Of a DNA stretch of 14,834 nt, positions 997-14,834 are shown in pieces; the stretch's first letter is position 1; every line of letters starts with the position of its first letter. This DNA comes from Sandaracinaceae bacterium (lineage in GTDB: Bacteria; Myxococcota_A; Polyangia; Polyangiales; Sandaracinaceae), in contig JBGAQA010000072.1 in NCBI GenBank assembly GCA_044220955.1, positions 21,311-36,144 on the forward strand, read 5' to 3'. Under the pieces are notes generated by a model that saw nothing but the letters and a program-made list of their open reading frames with translations, was not told the DNA's origin and made no database searches. A program made the translations under genes and the position numbers.

Positions 997-1039
997 GGGC
1001 GTAGGAACGACGGGCGTAGGAAGGAGGGCGTAGGAAGGA
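997..1039 (+). repeat. Three tandem copies of the 14-bp terminal oriIS motif
   Basis: GGGCGTAGGAACGA (997-1010), C, GGGCGTAGGAAGGA (1012-1025), GGGCGTAGGAAGGA (1026-1039). The transposase-linked end carries only one copy (5746-5759). Confidence 0.9.
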
Positions 1040-1129
1040 TGAAGCACCTGTTTCCCCGCGCGAGTTGTCGTAACCCATGTTCTGCGAAGTCGTCCCGCGC
1101 GTCCAGGCCCTGCCCCAGGTGCCTGCGGA
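1026..1129 (-). repeat. Orphan 104-bp copy of the IS91/ISCR-like oriIS end (direct repeat of 5746-5849)
   Basis: Identical to 5746-5849 except C1061 versus T5781; offset 4720 bp. Contains the inverted pair GCACCTG (1044-1050) / CAGGTGC (1116-1122). Confidence 0.95.
1063..1090 (-). other. dif-like XerC/XerD recombination site, copy 1
   Basis: Minus strand reads ACTTCGCAGAA-CATGGG-TTACGACAACT (11-6-11). The arms match B. subtilis dif (ACTTCCTAGAA / TTATGTAAACT) at 9/11 and 8/11, and E. coli dif (GGTGCGCATAA / TTATGTTAAAT) at 7/11 each. Reference sites are from memory. Confidence 0.72.
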
Positions 1130-1863
1130 GCCGCCGAAGGCCGCGATCACGGCGTCGGTGAAGGTCCACGCGCCCGTCGAGGTCTCGCTCGCGCTCGACG
1201 AGCCAAAGCCCGCGCGCGGGGGCCCGCCACTGCGCGCCATCACCGCGTCTGCGATCGCGCCCGAGTAGCAGGTGTCGGCGAAGAGCAGCGCGCGACGCAT
1301 GCGGCCGCCCTCGACCGCGCGAACGATCTCGTCGTAGGCCAAGCACGACGTGCTGCTGTCGTCGCCGGCGTCGAAGGGCACCGCGTACGAGTCCCCCGCG
1401 TCGGTGCGATCGCCGTGGCCGGTCCAGTAGAAGAGAAAGGTGTCGTCGGGATGGGCGGAGTCGATCGCCGCGTGCAGGCCCGCGCGCGTGGCGGCCAGCG
1501 TCGCCTCGCGATCGTGGAGGTACGTGATGCGCTCGCGCGGGACGCCGCGACGGGCGAGCGTGTCCACGAGCGCCTGGTCGCGCCGCTCGGCGCGCGGAAA
1601 GCTCGCGTAGACGTCGCTGCGATGCCAGCGCAGCAGGCCGACGGCGAAGACCACCGTGCGCGCCGGATCCCAGACGATCGGGCTACCCTCGACGGGCGCC
1701 GTGGTCGTCGGCGGCGCCGCGGGCGGCGTCACCGCGGGCGCGACGAGCGAGCGATCCGTGCCGCCGAAGCAGCAGCCGCCGAGCGGGAGCAGGGCCGCGG
1801 TCGCCGCGGCGTCGCGCAAGAACCGGCGTCGGCCGATCGGACTCACGCCCTCATCATACGCCG

Positions 1864-1885
1864 CGCGGCAGCGACGTTCCCTCGC
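1864..1885 (+). repeat. 22-bp perfect direct repeat, copy 1
   Basis: CGCGGCAGCGACGTTCCCTCGC, identical to 5486-5507. Both copies lie between annotated CDSs. Confidence 0.92.
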
Positions 1886-1896
1886 CCATCAGACTC

Positions 1897-2244
1897 TCAG
1901 TCCAGGTCCATCGCCACGCGTAGGCCGAGCGCGATCGCCGCGAGTAGCTCGCGGGGCAAGGTGCCGATCTGCTCTCGGAGCTTGGCCCGATCGAGCGTCG
2001 TCACTTGGTGGCAGAGGGCAACCGATTCTCGGTTCAGACCGGCCGCGCCGCGCGGCACGCGGACGGCGGTCGGACCTCGTGCGGCCTGCGTCACGGAGGT
2101 CGAGAGCGGCACGACCACGATCGACTGCCAGTTCGCCGACGCGTTGAATCCATCGTGCGAGACGACGACGACCGGTCGTCGCCCTGATTGCTCGGACCCG
2201 GACCTGGGCTGGAGATCGGCCCACAGGACGTCACCGCGCTTCAC
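1897..2244 (-). CDS. mazF: PemK/MazF-family mRNA interferase toxin
   Basis: MKRGDVLWADLQPRSGSEQSGRRPVVVVS...IVVVPLST...GLNRESVALCHQVTTLDRAKLREQIGTL shows the canonical MazF motifs; 115 aa. Confidence 0.95.
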   Translation of the reverse strand: MKRGDVLWADLQPRSGSEQSGRRPVVVVSHDGFNASANWQSIVVVPLSTSVTQAARGPTAVRVPRGAAGLNRESVALCHQVTTLDRAKLREQIGTLPRELLAAIALGLRVAMDLD

Positions 2245-2528
2245 TTGGCGCGCCGGCTCCGACTGCGCGGTGCGCGAAGGTGCTCGACGCCGGCGCGCTC
2301 GAGATCCGGATCGAGATCCACACCCGTGCCGCCCCAGCGCTCAGCGTAAGCGCGGAGCTCGGCGTGCTGCGCAGAGCGTCGGCGGGCGTCGAGCCAGCCC
2401 TCGACGGCCTCCCGCACGATCGCAGTGGTCGGCCGTCCGCTGCGGCTCGACTCGGCACGGAGCTCGCGATGCAGTGCCTCCGAGAGGGGCAGGTGGAAGT
2501 TGCGGACCGAACTCGTGGCGCGCGCCAT
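2241..2528 (-). CDS. Ribbon-helix-helix (CopG-like) antitoxin of the MazF toxin
   Basis: RNFHLPLSEALHRELRAESSRSGRPTTAIVREAVEGWL fits the beta-alpha-alpha RHH pattern. It has an acidic C-terminal segment (DLDPDLE) and a 4-bp overlap with the mazF start. Confidence 0.8.
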   Translation of the reverse strand: MARATSSVRNFHLPLSEALHRELRAESSRSGRPTTAIVREAVEGWLDARRRSAQHAELRAYAERWGGTGVDLDPDLERAGVEHLRAPRSRSRRAK

Positions 2529-2562
2529 GCCATGATTTTATGCCATGCGATGCTGGCGTCAA
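2524..2562 (-). promoter_or_regulatory. Promoter and operator of the RHH-mazF operon
   Basis: Minus strand TTGACG (2562-2557), 16 nt, TAAAAT (2540-2535), 6 nt, ATG (2528). Three CATGGC direct repeats flank the -10 and overlap the start codon. Confidence 0.7.
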
Positions 2563-2618
2563 TCGAGTCGTCGCCGCCCCTGACGCCTCCTGAGAACGAG
2601 AGCGCTATCCTCATCGCG

Positions 2619-3011
2619 ATGTACCGCAACGTCGATCTCGAGCTCCGAAGCCGCGAGCGGCTCGACTCGCTCGTCACCGCGCTCGCCGACCGGGTGCTCG
2701 TCCTGCACCACTCGCGAGAGCGTCGACGGTCGTTCCTTTGCCTGACCGTGCACGGCAGCGGGCTCGACCGGTTGCCGGGACGCACGCTGCGGCGCTGGTT
2801 CGAGCTGCTGCGTGCGCTTCGGGGCGAGCCGCGTCGGCTGTTCCGCGCGTCGCGCGTCCTAGCCTCGATCGGCTACGAGGCTGACGAGGCGCACTCCACC
2901 GCTGTCGTGGTGGAGCCGGCCGACGTCGCGGCGCTCGCTCGGCTCGGTGTGGGGATCGAGGTCGTCGTGTACGCGCGCGACGACCGTCGAGACGCTCAGG
3001 CCGGCGGGTAG
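2619..3011 (+). CDS. Hypothetical protein (130 aa)
   Basis: MYRNVDLELRSRERLDSLVTAL...SIGYEAD...DVAALARLGVGIEVVVY has globular, protein-like composition. TATCCT lies 7 nt before ATG 2619. The upstream part of the 2280 ORF is antisense shadow of the antitoxin. Confidence 0.7.
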   Translation: MYRNVDLELRSRERLDSLVTALADRVLVLHHSRERRRSFLCLTVHGSGLDRLPGRTLRRWFELLRALRGEPRRLFRASRVLASIGYEADEAHSTAVVVEPADVAALARLGVGIEVVVYARDDRRDAQAGG

Positions 3012-3023
3012 AGCAGCCCGGAG

Positions 3024-3048
3024 ATGGGGGCGAACGAGGTCGCCCCAT
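3024..3048. terminator. GC-rich hairpin between convergent genes (possible terminator)
   Basis: ATGGGGGCGA-ACGAGG-TCGCCCCAT stem-loop with no clear U-tract. A 12-bp palindrome GCTCTGCAGAGC follows at 3068-3079. Confidence 0.35.
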
Positions 3049-3099
3049 GCTTCCTAGAGACGACTACGCTCTGCAGAGCACGACGATCGCAGTCCACCG

Positions 3100-5232
3100 T
3101 CAGGGGATCGTCCAGCAGCCGAGGTCGGCGATGCCGCCGGGCGCAGCGTCGGCCGTGGGGTCGGCGAGGTAGCGAACGTCGTAGGTGCCAGGGAGCACGA
3201 TCGCGCTCGTCGTGTTCAGCATCGCCGAGGCCGACGTCAGTGAGAGGACCGTGGGCGACACGCGCGTCGGGTCCTCGCCCCGACGTACGAGCACGATCGA
3301 CGCGGCGCGGCTCGCGGGGCTGGGCCCGAGGCCGACGACGCCGACGGCGAGGCTGACGCTGCGCGCGGGCACGTCGATCGCGAGCGTTCCGTCCGCGCTC
3401 ACGTCGAGCCCGTGCGTGATTGTCCCGCTCGTCACCGGCCACGGCGGGCTGGCCGCGGCGAGGTAGCGAACGTCGTACGCACCCGTGACGAGGTGCAGCT
3501 CGCGCGTCGGCGCGAGCACGTCGGCGGCGTAGTAGACGCTCGTGTAGTAGTCGCTCGCGCCGGGTGCTCCGCCCGCGCTCGGCGCGAGGTCGACGGTCGG
3601 CGAGCGGAAGTCGCGCGGGTCGACGGGGCGCGGGAGCAACGGTGGCGCGGCGCCCGCGAGCGTGATCGGCGTGGTGACGTCGACCGTCGTGACCGCGAAC
3701 GTGACGCTGCGATCCACCGTCACGATCAGATCCGGCGCGATCGGGTTGCTGAAGAAGCCGCCCGACGAGGGCCATCCCGTCGGGCAGCCCGAGCCGCTCG
3801 CGAAGGCGAGCGCGTAATGACTGGGCAGGAGCTCCGCGCTGCCCGACGGCGGCACGCCGCGATCGCCGAGCACGATGCAGCCTCCGGTCGTTGCGGTGGC
3901 GCCGTTCACGCTGACCGCGTAGTCGAGGGTGACCGTGGCGAGGTCGTAGCTCAGCAGGGTGTCGGTCGTGATGGTGCGCGCCGCCTCGAGCGATGCTCCG
4001 AACGCAGGCATCGCGCCGAACGCCGCCGGGGACCAGTTCTCGTACGACACGTCGAACGTCCCCGCGACGATCGCCACGCTCGCCGTCGAGGGCGTGAAGT
4101 GCATGCCGTCGGACGCCGCGTCGTAGAGCGGGAGCCGCACCTGATCGACCCCGCGCGTCAGCACGATCGTGGGGACGTAGTGACCAGGCGCCGTGAGATC
4201 CACGTCGGCGAGCGGCGCACCACGGAGTGTCGCCGTCGCGCTCACGTGCACGCGCGGGATGTCGATGCTCGGAGCCACGTCGTGCGTGACGTCGATCGTC
4301 CCGAGGGGTGCCCCGTAGCTCACTGGCCACGGCGTCGACGTCGACGCGATCCCTTCGCGGTCGTACGTCGCGACGTACGTGTCCGCCAGAACGCGTATCG
4401 CGAAGTCGCCCGTGCAGCGGCTCGTGCTCGCCGTGACGGTCTCGCAGAGCATGACGCTCGCGAGGCCTCCGTGCGCGCCGGTGAGCTCGATGAACGGCGT
4501 GGCGCGGTCGCTCGTGCTCGGCACGTCGGCGCCCGCGAGCGTGACCGTCAGATCCAGCATCGCGGTGTGGACGTCGATCGCGAGCGAGGTGCCCTCGGCC
4601 GGCACGACGACGTGTCCGACGATGGCGTCGCGCGCCATCGGGAATCCCGACCCCTGGGACTGGAGCAGCACGTCGTACGTGCCCGGCACGACCTGGAGCT
4701 GCATCGCGGGGATGGGCGTCGCTTCGGTCGCGCCGGCGGGCAGCGAGTACAGCGGGAGGTACACGCTCGGGGTCGTGGTGTCGGGCGCGAGCAGCGGCGA
4801 GCGCAGCTCGAGCGTCGGCAGAAAGACCGCTCCTGCGGGGGCGAGCGACGGGAGCGCGCCGCCGTCCATGGTCACGTCGATCGCGAGCGGCGCACGTCGG
4901 ACATCGAGCGCCACGCGCGTGCCCGTGCGACAGCCGCTCGTGCAGTGGCCGCTGCCGAGGTCGCAGACCATGCCCACCGCGCAGTCGCCGTCGCGCACGC
5001 AGCGCGTGCCGCAGACGTGAGGCATCGCCTCGCCGCAGGGCATCGACGGATCGCAGATACCGCACGCGAGCGTGGTCCCGCAGCCGTCGTCGACGTCGCC
5101 GCACTCGAAGGCGAGCGACACGCAGGTGCGCGGGCGGCACGCGTCCGGCGTGGACGCGAACGGAACGCGCGGCGGATCGCACGCGACGAGCGCGAGCGCG
5201 AGCACTGCCGACCACGCGAGGCATGTGCGCAC
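3100..5232 (-). CDS. Large Cys-rich lipoprotein with about six repeated beta-rich modules (710 aa)
   Basis: From GTG 5232: signal peptide and lipobox (LALALVAC), a myxobacterial-type Cys-rich block (CRPRTC...ECGDVDDGCGTTLACGIC), then recurring motifs VVPGTYDV, VLADTYVA, IVAGTFDV, LLPSHYAL, LVTGAYDV, VLPGTYDV. Confidence 0.8.
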   Translation of the reverse strand: MRTCLAWSAVLALALVACDPPRVPFASTPDACRPRTCVSLAFECGDVDDGCGTTLACGICDPSMPCGEAMPHVCGTRCVRDGDCAVGMVCDLGSGHCTSGCRTGTRVALDVRRAPLAIDVTMDGGALPSLAPAGAVFLPTLELRSPLLAPDTTTPSVYLPLYSLPAGATEATPIPAMQLQVVPGTYDVLLQSQGSGFPMARDAIVGHVVVPAEGTSLAIDVHTAMLDLTVTLAGADVPSTSDRATPFIELTGAHGGLASVMLCETVTASTSRCTGDFAIRVLADTYVATYDREGIASTSTPWPVSYGAPLGTIDVTHDVAPSIDIPRVHVSATATLRGAPLADVDLTAPGHYVPTIVLTRGVDQVRLPLYDAASDGMHFTPSTASVAIVAGTFDVSYENWSPAAFGAMPAFGASLEAARTITTDTLLSYDLATVTLDYAVSVNGATATTGGCIVLGDRGVPPSGSAELLPSHYALAFASGSGCPTGWPSSGGFFSNPIAPDLIVTVDRSVTFAVTTVDVTTPITLAGAAPPLLPRPVDPRDFRSPTVDLAPSAGGAPGASDYYTSVYYAADVLAPTRELHLVTGAYDVRYLAAASPPWPVTSGTITHGLDVSADGTLAIDVPARSVSLAVGVVGLGPSPASRAASIVLVRRGEDPTRVSPTVLSLTSASAMLNTTSAIVLPGTYDVRYLADPTADAAPGGIADLGCWTIP

Positions 5233-5281
5233 CCCTTCAGTATGGGCGCGGCGACCTCGCGTGTCGCGGAGCGGCGGCGCG

Positions 5282-5486
5282 TCAGACGGTGTCGATCCGG
5301 CGCAGCGAGCGTCAGCGTCGAGGGCCGGCGCCGCGCGGGGAACACGATGGCGCGCGCCACACGTCGCAGACACGCACGCGCGCGCGCCTGCGGCTCCTCG
5401 GTGACCGACACCGATCGCACCTGCCCCGACGCCGCGATCACGAGCGAGACTGCGGCGCCCTCGTGCGCGCCGGCACAGCGCCAGAC
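5282..5486 (-). pseudogene. 5'-truncated fragment resembling an AgmX/PglI (TonB_C-like) C-terminal domain
   Basis: VWRCAGAHEGAAVSLVIAASGQVRSVSVTEEPQARARACLRRVARAIVFPARRRPSTLTL fits the C...v.l.i..sG.V..v.v......C........FP pattern. It has no start codon and begins at the 22-bp repeat; its 3' end is uncertain. Confidence 0.55.
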
Positions 5487-5507
5487 GCGGCAGCGACGTT
5501 CCCTCGC
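5486..5507 (+). repeat. 22-bp perfect direct repeat, copy 2
   Basis: CGCGGCAGCGACGTTCCCTCGC, identical to 1864-1885. Confidence 0.92.
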
Positions 5508-5531
5508 TGGCTGTATGCTCCGCCGCCCTCG

Positions 5532-5753
5532 ATGATCGAGCTCCCCGCGCTGACGCTCGCCCTGCCGCTCGCGCTCGCTGCGTTCCTCGGGTTCTCGGTC
5601 GAGACCGTGCTCGGGTTCGGAGCGACGCTCATCACGGTGGCGATCGGCTCGTTCTTCGTCGATCTCGAGGCGCTCCTGCCCGCGATCGCGCCGCTGAACC
5701 TGATGCTCTCGCTCTATCTCGTGGCCCGCTACCACCGCGAGATCGGGGCGTAG
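5532..5753 (+). pseudogene. TauE/SafE (TSUP) family membrane protein, 3'-truncated by the IS end
   Basis: MIELPALTLALPLALAAFLGFSVETVLGFGATLITVAIGSFFVDLEALLPAIAPLNLMLSLYLVARYHREI is a TSUP N-terminus (GFG motif) of only ~71 codons, against roughly 250 aa for the family. The stop TAG (5751-5753) is supplied by the oriIS sequence. Confidence 0.8.
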
Positions 5754-5782
5754 GAAGGATGAAGCACCTGTTTCCCCGCGTG

Positions 5783-5810
5783 AGTTGTCGTAACCCATGT
5801 TCTGCGAAGT
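5783..5810 (-). other. dif-like XerC/XerD recombination site, copy 2 (37 bp inside oriIS)
   Basis: Identical 28-mer to 1063-1090, in the same orientation and with the same 6-bp spacer. Confidence 0.72.
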
Positions 5811-5977
5811 CGTCCCGCGCGTCCAGGCCCTGCCCCAGGTGCCTGCGGACGCGCGGACGAACGGCCTGTGGACGCGCGGAAGAACGCCTCGCGCGTCGCT
5901 CGCACGGTACGAAAGGACGCGGGACGCCGCGCGGACGGAGCCGTCCGTTCGCGCGGGCCGGCCGGCGTGCGCGTGCG

Positions 5978-7357
5978 TCAGGTCCAGTCGTGCTCGGCCG
6001 GGCCGGGAGGCGGACGCGCGGGGCGGATCGGCAGCGCCTCGCACCGGTAGCCGTGCGCGCGCAGCGCTCGCGCGAGGCCGCTCCGCTCGATCAGGGTCGC
6101 CACGTACCTCATGCGGCCGCCACAGTCGCGACAGGACTGCACATCCAGGCCGAAGCTCTTGCGCATGAGATCGGCCCAGGCGGTGTTGCGGCGCCGCGGT
6201 GGGCCCGGCGGGCCCGGCAGCGCCCGCGCGCGGTGCGAGGCGTGTCCCGCGAGGATGCCGTGGTACAGGAGCGTGTTCGCGCGAGGCCGCGGGACGAGGC
6301 TCGCGAGGCGCTCGAGGAACGTGTCCGGGTCGTACGACACGTGCGTCGTGCCATCGGGCCACGGATGCCGCAGCGCGAGCACGATGCGGCCGTCGGGCAT
6401 GGCGCGGAGGCGTGATGCGGAGAACGGCGGACGCAGGATGTAGCGACAGAGCTGCTCGAGACGATCCCGGCGCCGGGGAGAGACGGCCACGGTGGCGTCG
6501 AGGTCGAAGCCGCCGAGGCGCGCTTTGCGGCGCTCGCGCTCGGGGACGAGCGTCACGTGCGGGTCCTCGTCCGGACCGAGCTTGCTCGCGCCACGCGACA
6601 GGACGGAGCGCGTGAGCGTGTGCGCGAGCGGGCCCTCCTGCCCTGCAGCCTCCGATGCGCCGCCGTCGCGACGCGCCAGCAGGCGCTCGACGCGCGTGAC
6701 GATCTTCGCGAGCAGCGCCTCCATCTCGCCGGGAGCCGGGGCGGCGACGGGGACGAAGCGCGGAGCCCGGCCCGGCGCGAGCGCGAACGCCCCGTCGAGG
6801 AACACCCCGTGGAAGTGCAGGTTGAGCCGGAGGTCGCCGCCGAATCGATGGATGGCCGTGACGTTCCCGCCTTGGAGGCGCGCCCCGGCCGGGCAGCGGA
6901 CGGAGCGGCGGTACCACCGGTCGATCACGCGGACGGCGACCCTCCAGATCGCGAGCGCGAGGGAGTGATCGTACGCGGCGCGGTAGCGGAGCCCGAAGGG
7001 CAGCGTCAGCACCCACTGACGGACGCGCACCTCGGGGAACACGCGCGAGACGAGATGGCCGGCCAGATCCGTCATGCGACGGCCACCGCAGCGAGGACAG
7101 AAGCCCCTTCCTTTGCAGGAGAGCGCGACCAGGCGGTCCCGGCGGCAGTCGTCACAGCGGAAGCGCGCCGCACCGTGCGCGAGCACGCCGCAGCGGAGGA
7201 ACGCGCGCAGCTCGTTCGTCACGAACGGAGGCAGCCCGACGCCCTCCGGGTCGGCCGAGGCGCGCGCGGCGAGGAACGTCTCGAGGTGCTCGCGCAGCAC
7301 GCGGTGCAGGACGCCAGCCTGGGGATCGCGCGGGCTCGTGTCGTGGGTGGCGCGCAC
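5978..7357 (-). CDS. IS91/ISCR-family HUH rolling-circle transposase
   Basis: Zn-binding region (CG..AHG...RCDDC...SCKGRGFCPRCG), RQWVLTLP, HUH motif HRFGGDLRLNLHFH, catalytic LCRYILRPP, LVPRPR...YHGILA and C-terminal CRDCGGRM; 459 aa, uninterrupted. Confidence 0.96.
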   Translation of the reverse strand: MRATHDTSPRDPQAGVLHRVLREHLETFLAARASADPEGVGLPPFVTNELRAFLRCGVLAHGAARFRCDDCRRDRLVALSCKGRGFCPRCGGRRMTDLAGHLVSRVFPEVRVRQWVLTLPFGLRYRAAYDHSLALAIWRVAVRVIDRWYRRSVRCPAGARLQGGNVTAIHRFGGDLRLNLHFHGVFLDGAFALAPGRAPRFVPVAAPAPGEMEALLAKIVTRVERLLARRDGGASEAAGQEGPLAHTLTRSVLSRGASKLGPDEDPHVTLVPERERRKARLGGFDLDATVAVSPRRRDRLEQLCRYILRPPFSASRLRAMPDGRIVLALRHPWPDGTTHVSYDPDTFLERLASLVPRPRANTLLYHGILAGHASHRARALPGPPGPPRRRNTAWADLMRKSFGLDVQSCRDCGGRMRYVATLIERSGLARALRAHGYRCEALPIRPARPPPGPAEHDWT

Positions 7358-7368
7358 GGGCGGCGCCG

Positions 7369-7384
7369 AGCAGCGAGCGTTCCG
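7369..7384 (-). promoter_or_regulatory. Candidate sigma54 (-24/-12) promoter of the transposase
   Basis: Minus strand CGGAACG-CTCG-CTGCT has GG-N10-GC spacing and resembles TGGCACG-N4-TTGC. It lies 12 nt from the GC to the GTG start. Confidence 0.5.
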
Positions 7385-7542
7385 GAGCCGGCACCTGCGA
7401 ACCGCGGAGGATCTCGACCGCGGCTGGCGGAGGTGGCGGCGGGCCGCCGCCGGTCAGGGCCCCGGCACGCGATGACCCCTCGTCCCGGCCCTCTCGCGAG
7501 CCGGCCACCGTCAGTCCGCCGCGCCGCGCGCGTCGACGAGAC

Positions 7543-7767
7543 ATGAGCCGCCGCCGGAGTCGCTCGCACGGATCGTGGACGGGGCGCTGCTGGATCGACG
7601 ATCTCGATCCGGAGCGCGAGTGGGTGGACACGGCGCCGCGGGACGTCGAGCGTGCGGCGGCGCCCCCGGCGCCGGCGAGGAGCGGGGCTCGGCTCGCGGA
7701 GCCGGGCGAGCCTGCGCTCGGGGATGCCATCGGGTGGCTCGGGGCGGTGCAGCGGGAGAAGGCGTGA
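7543..7767 (+). CDS. Small hypothetical protein (74 aa), divergent from the transposase
   Basis: ORF fills an otherwise empty gap and has a Trp/acidic core (GRCWIDDLDPEREWVD). No family recognised. Confidence 0.35.
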   Translation: MSRRRSRSHGSWTGRCWIDDLDPEREWVDTAPRDVERAAAPPAPARSGARLAEPGEPALGDAIGWLGAVQREKA

Positions 7768-7882: not shown

Positions 7883-8167
7883 GTGAGCGACACCCAGATC
7901 TCCGCGTTCATCTCCGACACGACCAAGGAGAAGGTCGAGCGTTACGTCGACGCGCATGGCGTGAAGAAGGGACACCTCGTCGAGGAGGCGCTGCTGCACC
8001 ACCTGCAGGCGCTGCGCGAGCTGCCGGCGGATCTCGTCCTGCCGCCGCGCCTGCTCGTGTCCCGCGAGTCGCTCGAGAAGGTGGCGGGTCTCGTTCGCAA
8101 GCCGCCGCGTCCCACGAAGGCGCTGCGAGATCTGATGAGTGGCCGGCGCGTCGATGGCGAGCCCTGA
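7883..8167 (+). CDS. RHH antitoxin (DUF1778/TacA-like) of a GNAT toxin
   Basis: MSDTQISAFISDTTKEKVERYVDAHGVKKGHLVEEALL (RHH) ... RLLVSRESLEKVAGLVRKPPRPTKALRDLM (DUF1778-like tail); 94 aa; overlaps the toxin start. Confidence 0.8.
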   Translation: MSDTQISAFISDTTKEKVERYVDAHGVKKGHLVEEALLHHLQALRELPADLVLPPRLLVSRESLEKVAGLVRKPPRPTKALRDLMSGRRVDGEP

Positions 8168-8690
8168 CGAGACCCGCTTCCGCGTTCGGCGGCTCGCGCC
8201 GGACGACGACCGCACCGAATTTCGCTCCGGGAACCTCGAGCTCGATCGGTTTTTCCATCGCTACGCCGGGCAGAACCAGTTTCGGCACCACATCGGCACC
8301 ACCTACGTCGCAGTGCGCGACGACGGCTTCCTCGCCGGGTACGCGACCGTGGCCGCGTCGGAGATCGCGACCGCTGCGATCCCCGGGGCGACGCGCAAGC
8401 GACTGCCGCAGTATCCGCTTCCGGTCCTGCGCCTCGCTCGGCTGGCGGTCGACGAGCGCGCTCGTGGGCTGGGCGTGGGGGCGATCCTGCTCGCCGCCGT
8501 GATCGGCCTCGCAGACACGATGGCGACCGAGCTCGGCTGCGTGGGCGTCGTGGTCGACAGCAAGCCCGAGGCGACAGCCTTCTACGCGAAGCTCGGCTTC
8601 GTGGCGCTGGAGGTGGACGCCGGTCAGCTCGGCGATCGCCCCGAGCCGCTGCCGATGTTCTTGTCGCTCGGCTCGGTCCCGAAGCGCTGA
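8154..8690 (+). CDS. GNAT acetyltransferase toxin (AtaT/TacT-like)
   Basis: DDRTEFRSGNLELDRFFHRYAGQNQ...GYATV...PQYPLPVLRLARLAVDERARGLGVGAILL...GVVVDSK...FYAKLGF are hallmark motifs of tRNA-acetylating GNAT toxins. Confidence 0.92.
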   Translation: MASPDETRFRVRRLAPDDDRTEFRSGNLELDRFFHRYAGQNQFRHHIGTTYVAVRDDGFLAGYATVAASEIATAAIPGATRKRLPQYPLPVLRLARLAVDERARGLGVGAILLAAVIGLADTMATELGCVGVVVDSKPEATAFYAKLGFVALEVDAGQLGDRPEPLPMFLSLGSVPKR

Positions 8691-14693: not shown

Positions 14694-14703
14694 GGCGCGC
14701 GTG

Positions 14704-14834
14704 CCCTCACCCAACCCTCTCCCACTTCGTGGGAGAGGGCTTTCGAGCTCGGTTCCCTCTCCCACTTCGTGGGAGGGGGCCCTTCGAGCTCGGTTCCCTC
14801 TCCCACTTCGTGGGAGGGGGCCCTTCGAGCTCGG
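14704..14834. repeat. Tandem REP-like palindromic repeats (40-41 bp period, at least 3 units, runs off the window)
   Basis: Units start at 14715, 14755 and 14796. Each is a CCCTCTCCCAC-TTC-GTGGGAG(A/G)GGG hairpin plus a linker ending TTCGAGCTCGGTT. The array is preceded by CCCTCACCCAA. Confidence 0.9.

Follow-up and report, generated by a model that had tools for sequence, protein, structure and literature searches.

In the insertion sequences (IS) IS91, IS801 and IS1294, rolling-circle activity starts at the origin end of the element (oriIS), adjacent DNA is carried along and target preference is on the scale of a tetranucleotide, with Y249 and Y253 as the catalytic tyrosines of IS91 (excerpts of PMC5714925 and PMC13181058). 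ISCR1 is known to hold cargo on its ori side and forms tandem units via circles (excerpts of PMC13023784), and an oriIS–armA–oriIS arrangement of ISCR28, in which the gene lies between an extra oriIS remnant and a full element, has been ascribed to two sequential oriIS (Yuan et al., 2024, as cited in passages of PMC12772301). How ISCR elements acquire genes is an open question, and the current model is built on sequence patterns. Here, we describe a window of 14,834 nucleotides from a Sandaracinaceae bacterium (positions 21311–36144 of contig C271 in assembly G000, which comprises 7.5 Mb in 301 contigs with 72.5% GC and is 88% complete); 'the window' denotes this whole stretch. It holds an element with an HUH transposase gene of the IS91/ISCR family, on the ori side of which a cargo with truncated genes lies between the resident oriIS and a second, stub-like copy of the same origin end. 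With modest confidence, we lean towards the reading that the resident ISCR-type transposase captures foreign DNA at its own origin and that Xer recombination reshuffles the captured units later.

The predicted transposase carries an HFH motif at position 181 and a single tyrosine, at 305, in an RYxxR motif, and the oriIS tip sits 232 bp past the stop codon, on the 3' side of the gene. With its Y2_Tnp and zinc-binding domains and a downstream oriIS with a conserved tip, the element is assigned from its sequence to the IS91/ISCR family. The transposase shares about 36% identity with the enzymes of clinical ISCR elements, its nearest named relatives being found in Myxococcota and other uncultured lineages, and the tip of the repeat matches the published ISCR1 oriIS 22-mer (excerpts of PMC13023784) at 17 of 22 positions when aligned by eye. 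Two features mark the canonical IS91 subgroup, namely two catalytic tyrosines four residues apart and a target tetranucleotide of the CTTG/GTTC type beside the ori tip; here, one tyrosine was found and no tetramer recurs more than twice in 29 tip joints.

The cargo is enclosed by direct repeats of 104 bp (1026–1129 and 5746–5849) with a spacing of 4720 and one mismatch (1061 C/5781 T), as an earlier note on this DNA had described, and comparison with intact orthologues confirmed its statement that a caspase-family gene and a tauE gene are cut at the joints. Each repeat runs from the oriIS tip through a dif-like site to an inner end; its last two bases in the first copy (GA, 1128–1129) are probably derived from the cargo, which would leave a real stub of about 102 bp. 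The note had further proposed that the repeat is a functional unit ending just past a GCACCTG/CAGGTGC pair (1044 and 1116). The pair is present, but it is weak as a boundary because each 7-mer recurs 4–6 times in the window, whereas the functional unit itself is borne out by a fixed end in many copies.

Related loci were retrieved via the transposase (80 loci), and 28 of them include the 3' end of its gene together with at least 1.5 kb of ori-side flank. A 72–118 bp copy of the ori end lies upstream in seven of the 28, and whole-genome searches gave, upstream of the element, five partial copies in G062 and three in G064, as well as 41 matches in G061, for which 40 of 140 candidates were scored. 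The search for further ori–cargo–ori arrays that the note had recommended was therefore productive, and integron-like arrays as it had imagined them were found, with up to five stubs; the layout also stands in assemblies with very long contigs. On C271 itself, more ori pieces in the same orientation lie upstream, at 16646, 19005 and 19664. The latter two form an old and decayed stub–cargo–ori pair of another variant (C271:19005–19080 and 19664–19880, corresponding to L002:3005–3880, 709 bp apart); it stops at the identical GCCTGCG/GAGC joint, and its stub starts at the dif-like centre. The exact tip 14-mer was present in only two of 201 genomes of the order, G000 included, a search for close copies of the G000 ori gave a single metagenome match (L165), and a search of the phylum with half of the transposase (15 of 401 matched) added no loci.

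The evidence that carries our reading begins with the inner end of the stub. In G061, 27 of 37 partial matches stop at query base 127, seven stop 1–9 bases off and three stop at or before the dif-like centre. The bases that follow differ between full elements and stubs: among 38 anchor matches in this genome, all four full elements have GAC, whereas 30 of the 34 stubs have GAG, one has GAT and three differ earlier. In G062 the next bases are GAG in five cases versus GAC in two, after exclusion of one unrelated pattern hit, and all five stubs have GAG; GAGC follows in both stubs of G000, and three stubs of G064 stop no more than two bases apart, with AGC. On these comparisons, the inner end is a fixed site and not a scar. 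It has to be considered whether copy 1 might be the remnant of an independent full insertion after random deletion, since ori-side truncated copies of other lengths do occur (L085, 409 bp; L278, at least 268 bp). However, dozens of copies that differ in cargo share their endpoint to the base, G follows in place of the C of the element, and at the donor the cargo runs uninterrupted to each of the two joints, so that we regard a deletion remnant as very unlikely. A single ancestral event behind the common endpoints is likewise disfavoured, because the cargos differ. Insertion of a solo stub into one gene, in the manner of a miniature inverted-repeat transposable element, was also considered and rejected in a limited test, in which coding-like frames flanked only two modules on either side, in neither case with matching Pfam hits.

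The DNA that adjoins the inner end points in the same direction. A donor-like copy at 95% identity (L276) itself has GAG, with unrelated DNA upstream, and the GA would for this reason belong to the target. At the tip, on the other side of the cargo, no tetramer occurs more than twice in the 29 joints. As the GAG/GAGC bias is found at the inner joint and none is found at the tip, the caspase joint appears to be the targeted one and the tauE joint an arbitrary end. The earlier proposal that an element had inserted in tauE at a donor locus does not agree with this placement of the sequence preference, and no such donor is present in the 88% complete assembly. Short tip fragments, which are compatible with abortive rounds, carry 0–7 extra bases. 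The two that precede copy 1 in the window are likely to be abortive units added at the nick site; similar tip trains occur in L100 and L130, and the 15-nt fragment is absent from one contig of run X4.

The origin of the cargo could be traced through both cut genes. The caspase frame retains 239 codons of what is, in the intact orthologue, an open frame of 408 codons with terminal Agenet/Tudor domains, and an orthologue on C257 (65980–67206, 78% nucleotide identity) runs on beyond the joint. The tauE gene keeps positions 1–58 of the 237 positions of the TauE profile, all of which are spanned by the intact orthologue, and its orthologue (83% nucleotide identity) aligns to the final base before the tip. 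The missing 3' halves are absent from the window, as the note had stated, and none was found at high identity in the assembly. G000 possesses its own intact divergent caspase–tauE pair on C257, in the same arrangement and with 78–83% nucleotide identity, and the pair is also found on one contig in two other members of the genus. Because the pair of the host itself is only this similar and has the same arrangement, the cargo reads as foreign and contiguous, that is, as a single contiguous donor locus of a relative cut within both genes. The intact donor copies for which the note had advised a search were thus found as a pair, but not at the identity of a direct donor: the own genome yielded only the 78–83% pair, and none above 88% was found in 31 family genomes, with nine candidates scored per genome. 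Between the divergent starts of the two genes lies a nested 3.6 kb insert (1864–5507) with a perfect 22-bp repeat at its edges and no recombinase gene within; in the orthologous loci the caspase and tauE genes are directly adjacent, without this insert. For another cargo, in G061, the match to a donor-like locus likewise extends to both joints. Of 19 coding-like frames at other joints, five are cut within a Pfam domain (PPK2, D12 methylase, kinase, DDE and HEAT), and the remaining 14 comprise two with hits that show no cut and twelve without a hit.

Where an array ends in a full element, the stubs of like orientation are on its ori side, which supports the capture on the ori side that the note had proposed. 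The note had also contrasted this with classical capture at the terminus (terIS); the ori placement stands, but it is less exceptional than the note had suggested, as ISCR1 complex integrons and the ISCR28 sandwich have been published. The number of differences from the resident ori grows with distance from it (0, 0, 2 and 3 in G062; 0, 1 and 2 in G064; 0 and 2 on contig C24 of G061). Because divergence rises with distance from the transposase, the stubs resemble a series of copies taken from the resident origin one after another, with foreign cargo between them.

Comparison of the loci thus shows a fixed stub end, a GAG(C) cargo start, an arbitrary tip joint, stacking on the ori side and a foreign, contiguous cargo. 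A mechanism that would join these elements can be proposed on the basis of HUH behaviour as described in excerpts of PMC5714925 and PMC13181058. The transposase would nick the tip, and the origin strand would be copied up to the inner site. The copied end would then be ligated to a foreign piece that has been cut at GAG(C), whereas the other, arbitrary end of the foreign DNA would be joined to the enzyme-held tip, either directly or via a short-lived circle of stub plus cargo that is returned at the nick. Every round would duplicate the stub and move older units farther from the transposase. Afterwards, host XerCD or the integrase of a sister element would probably recombine the dif-like sites, by which halves would be swapped and units excised or moved.

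The dif-like site in the two repeats (1063–1090 and 5783–5810) departs from a C133 site at three of the 22 positions in its arms. The pattern of the C133 site was found in 27 of 32 family genomes, mostly once each and with at most three mismatches, and the reversed control gave none, for which reason the C133 site is taken as the host dif, the array lying elsewhere, on C271. This tally and the matrix described below take in one unpublished genome (G026), on which no claim is based alone. At the host dif on C133 no ori or transposase match was found, so that integration at the chromosomal dif is not observed here. We take the XerC and XerD arms to be arranged as in the Escherichia coli site. 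The dif named in the earlier note is consequently a real dif-like site, and it carries signs of crossover. A matrix of 26 host sites gave scores of at least 12 bits in 6/50 ori-side segments, 1/41 segments on the 5' side and 0/50 internal segments, and a looser pattern, composed after several sites were known, matched 16/36 ori-side segments versus 1/32, 0/36 and 0/28 controls. In L100, L108, L125, L132, L154 and L159 the dif-like site is opposite in orientation to the tip; L100 nonetheless makes a stub.

Traces of exchange at this site were found in two genomes. After removal of three of 24 modules (one duplicate, one deleted and one divergent), the 21 modules of G061 were compared across 45 splits, and both the lowest left–right correlation (r = −0.03) and the highest four-gamete incompatibility (0.88) fell at the boundary of the central region with the transposase-side arm, the presumed XerC edge. 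In G000, a copy on C199 has its left half in common with the window ori (53 of 56 bases) and then switches, at the arm boundary, to an integrase-type element. This sister element (C199:75420–76400, corresponding to L004:7421–8400) combines the same tip and the left half of the dif-like site with a tyrosine integrase gene directed away from the tip. Exchanges at the dif-like site are therefore likely to happen, as far as such sequence mosaics can tell, although the whole foreign-type stubs and the tip trains suggest that units can also arrive without them.

These traces bear on another route, in which a circle of stub plus cargo is generated elsewhere, at a donor site, and then integrates into the resident origin through a crossover within the repeat, mediated by XerCD or RecA. 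The similarity of the dif-like site to the host dif, its frequency beside ori tips in the clade, the change of sequence type at the presumed XerC edge and the several G061 copies that start or stop at the central region are all in keeping with it. Such a circle followed by homologous recombination is moreover the published model for ISCR1 arrays, integration through XerC-only exchange, resolved by replication, is known for the CTX and VGJ phages (excerpts of PMC9226527), and the youngest units would be expected beside the transposase here as well. By itself, however, this route leaves the fixed inner end and the GAG bias unexplained and would still require the transposase. Whole foreign-type stubs lie between resident-type copies in two arrays (L130 and contig C9 of G061), which does not fit one crossover per unit, the stubs of G064 follow the resident ori to the left as well as to the right of the dif-like site, and crossovers at dif cannot make tip trains. 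In addition, G000 shows no donor bearing an inserted element, and in four searched regions of cargo beside G061 stubs no identical second copy was found except IS-like repeats. For the window unit, the Campbell-type integration via the repeat that the note had favoured is thus the less likely course, and we consider the circle route the main rival, though a rather doubtful one.

The sister elements raise the further question of whether the inner joint could have been made by their tyrosine recombinase and not by the HUH transposase. Integrase-bearing elements share the tip and the left half of the site, as on C199, and tyrosine recombinases tolerate very short secondary sites. Against this, the inner joint lies about 37 bp past the dif-like site in the window and lacks two-arm symmetry, the stubs with a fixed inner end have the transposase-type right half, and the tip joint is at the known HUH nick position; a recombinase origin of the joint is, in our view, quite unlikely.

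Several observations weigh against capture by the resident transposase and have to be set beside the evidence in its favour. In the canonical IS91 pattern the tetramer adjoins the ori tip, so that for the inner joint we can only infer the strand and the chemistry; on the opposite strand the cargo end reads (G)CTC, which is IS91-tetramer-like. The donor support for GAG comes from one 95% paralogue, whereas an 81% paralogue is without GAG, and the caspase orthologues at 71–84% identity are without GA at the joint. The gradient of divergence would also be expected from Campbell integration of circles of the same lineage, it is broken by a foreign-type stub inside the arrays on contig C9 of G061 (0, 33 and 0) and in L130, and in G061 many stubs lie a long way from any full element or in mixed orientation. 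As to the later reshuffling, the G061 mosaic dips again where the arm ends on its outer side (r = 0.00, incompatibility 0.69), in an analysis with related rows and no significance test, and full xerC and xerD genes were not recovered in the G000 assembly, in which fragments only were found. Finally, as of 2018 no ISCR element had been seen to transpose (excerpts of PMC6218425).

A misassembly at the repeat could produce a similar picture. The assembly consists of 301 contigs, an N gap directly precedes the window, and the caspase joint is crossed by none of the listed pieces from the sequencing runs. The joint nevertheless has the GAGC signature of the family and the same endpoint as the unrelated pair on C271, and the layout recurs in very long contigs elsewhere. 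Contigs of run X1 cover most of the cargo with no differences, and one of them crosses the tauE–tip joint, with 27 bases on the ori side. Contig depth in this run was about 15 over the transposase and 6–11 over the cargo and does not enter the argument. We judge a misassembly to be extremely unlikely. Among the listed pieces of run X4, the vapC–ori joint (858–1093) and the element (5788–7500) were covered and the cargo was not, a further 648 pieces being unlisted; these pieces are compatible with an empty site, but it is spanned by no contig and they were not counted as evidence.

The features of the window are collected in the table below. The hairpin motif 5' of the transposase gene is likely to be the terIS region, and comparison of sequences gave no sharp boundary for the terIS end and the right-flank target. 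The 11-bp repeats just inside the inner site are possible candidates for transposase binding. The antitoxin that accompanies the MazF/PemK gene is putative, being assigned from its position and overlap. A 250-bp stretch 5' of the transposase gene (7510–7760) has an 85% identical copy at C271:5188–5436. Toxin–antitoxin modules flank the element (1–927 and 7884–8690), comprising the end of a toxin-like gene, vapBC and a GNAT gene that has a small partner upstream, and tandem 41-nt repeats in three copies, similar to repetitive extragenic palindromic sequences, are found at 14697–14818. In G061, an IS110-family element of 1.48 kb (e.g. L204:7144–8622) is present in at least eight copies, several of which lie in stub ori tips with the first tip bases removed, and it may target the ori tip.

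Table 1. Coordinates of the features of the captured unit and the resident element (positions in the window).
Feature	Position	Strand	Remarks
Ori-tip fragments of 15 nt and 14 nt in tandem	997..1025	+	Tip 11-mer at 997, 1012 and 1026
Ori stub, copy 1	1026..1129	+	From oriIS tip via dif-like site to fixed inner end (~1127)
dif-like site, 28 bp, in stub	1063..1090	+	One arm 11/11 identical to host dif, other arm with 3 mismatches
Caspase-family (Peptidase_C14) gene, 5' part	1128..1846	-	Cut at inner joint; cargo starts with GAGC on + strand
22-bp direct repeat, left copy	1864..1885	+	Only two copies genome-wide at <=2 mismatches
MazF/PemK toxin gene with putative antitoxin, in nested insert	1897..2528	-	PemK_toxin, E 3.8e-29
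Hypothetical 130-aa gene, nested insert	2619..3011	+	No Pfam match; 79% nucleotide match in G003
757-aa open reading frame, nested insert	3100..5373	-	No Pfam match; Cys-rich N-terminal part
22-bp direct repeat, right copy	5486..5507	+	
tauE/safE gene, 5' part	5532..5745	+	Cut at ori tip
Resident oriIS end, copy 2	5746..5849	+	dif-like site 5783-5810; inner site, GAC after 5847
Two 11-bp direct repeats just inside inner site	5847..5880	+	Motif at 5847 and 5870; putative transposase-binding repeats
IS91/ISCR-family HUH transposase gene, intact	5978..7357	-	459 aa; Y2_Tnp and Zn_Tnp_IS91 domains
GC-rich hairpin motif 5' of transposase gene	7426..7455	+	11 similar copies in genome at <=5 mismatches

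Concrete, testable substrates for the study of gene capture by ISCR elements are at hand in the fixed inner site, in the bias towards GAG(C) and in the polarity of the arrays. If capture in place is true, arrays of ori stubs would be ordered records of DNA uptake from relatives, and the many stub arrays that have been taken for debris would in fact mark where an active mechanism has been at work. As a tentative generalization, a broad clade of ISCR-type transposases may be stationary capture enzymes, which would copy a stub of about 100 bp, splice foreign single-stranded DNA to it at GAG(C) and build polar, age-ordered arrays with a dif-like site for Xer shuffling. If this stationary capture is true, these transposases would represent an HUH-driven platform for gene capture, which could explain why mobility of ISCR elements has been elusive despite their variable neighbours.

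In comparison with known systems, sandwiches of the oriIS–gene–oriIS type are already known, whereas the fixed site, the target bias and the polarity were not met in the literature. The latter statement applies to a search chiefly of titles and abstracts, in which neither these three features nor a dif-like site within oriIS came up; key reviews, the ISCR28 paper, TnPedia and supplements lay outside it. The window element resembles the ISCR elements in its HUH transposase and its tip, at the identities given above, and in the placement of genes beside oriIS. In ISCR1, however, the repeated homology is the 3'-conserved segment of the integron, whereas here it is an ori stub of about 100 bp with a fixed inner end. 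Clinical ISCR3-like ori ends also differ, as no dif-like site is evident by eye in the three compared; these ends (L277–L279) show a second tip-like motif about 38 bp inside, which resembles the inner-end motif of the L100 and L103 stubs. The ISCR28 sandwich is similar in that a gene lies between two oriIS copies, and the passages that cite it speak neither of a fixed inner site or a target bias nor of polarity or a dif-like site. In IS91, IS801 and IS1294 the tetramer is found at the ori tip and the cargo beyond terIS, whereas here the preference lies about 100 bp further in and the tip joint is without a tetramer. Relative to the integrative mobile elements that exploit Xer recombination (the CTX, VGJ and TLC phages) and to pdif modules, the window array lies off the chromosomal dif (C271 versus C133), its sites are co-oriented and its units are bounded by gene-cutting joints of the transposase type; like them, it has a dif-like site of which one arm is conserved and the other degenerate, and the order of units can be read from their position. 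The marks of an integron, namely an IntI integrase, attI and whole-gene cassettes bounded by attC, were not found, as C271 has no Phage_integrase match and the cargo ends within genes (an attC model was not applied), and the array differs from integrons and CRISPR arrays in that it has no Cas gene and in that its cargo is kilobases long and cut inside genes. By analogy, however, the array resembles both of these systems in its polar growth beside an enzyme gene and in having one repeat per unit, which decays with age.

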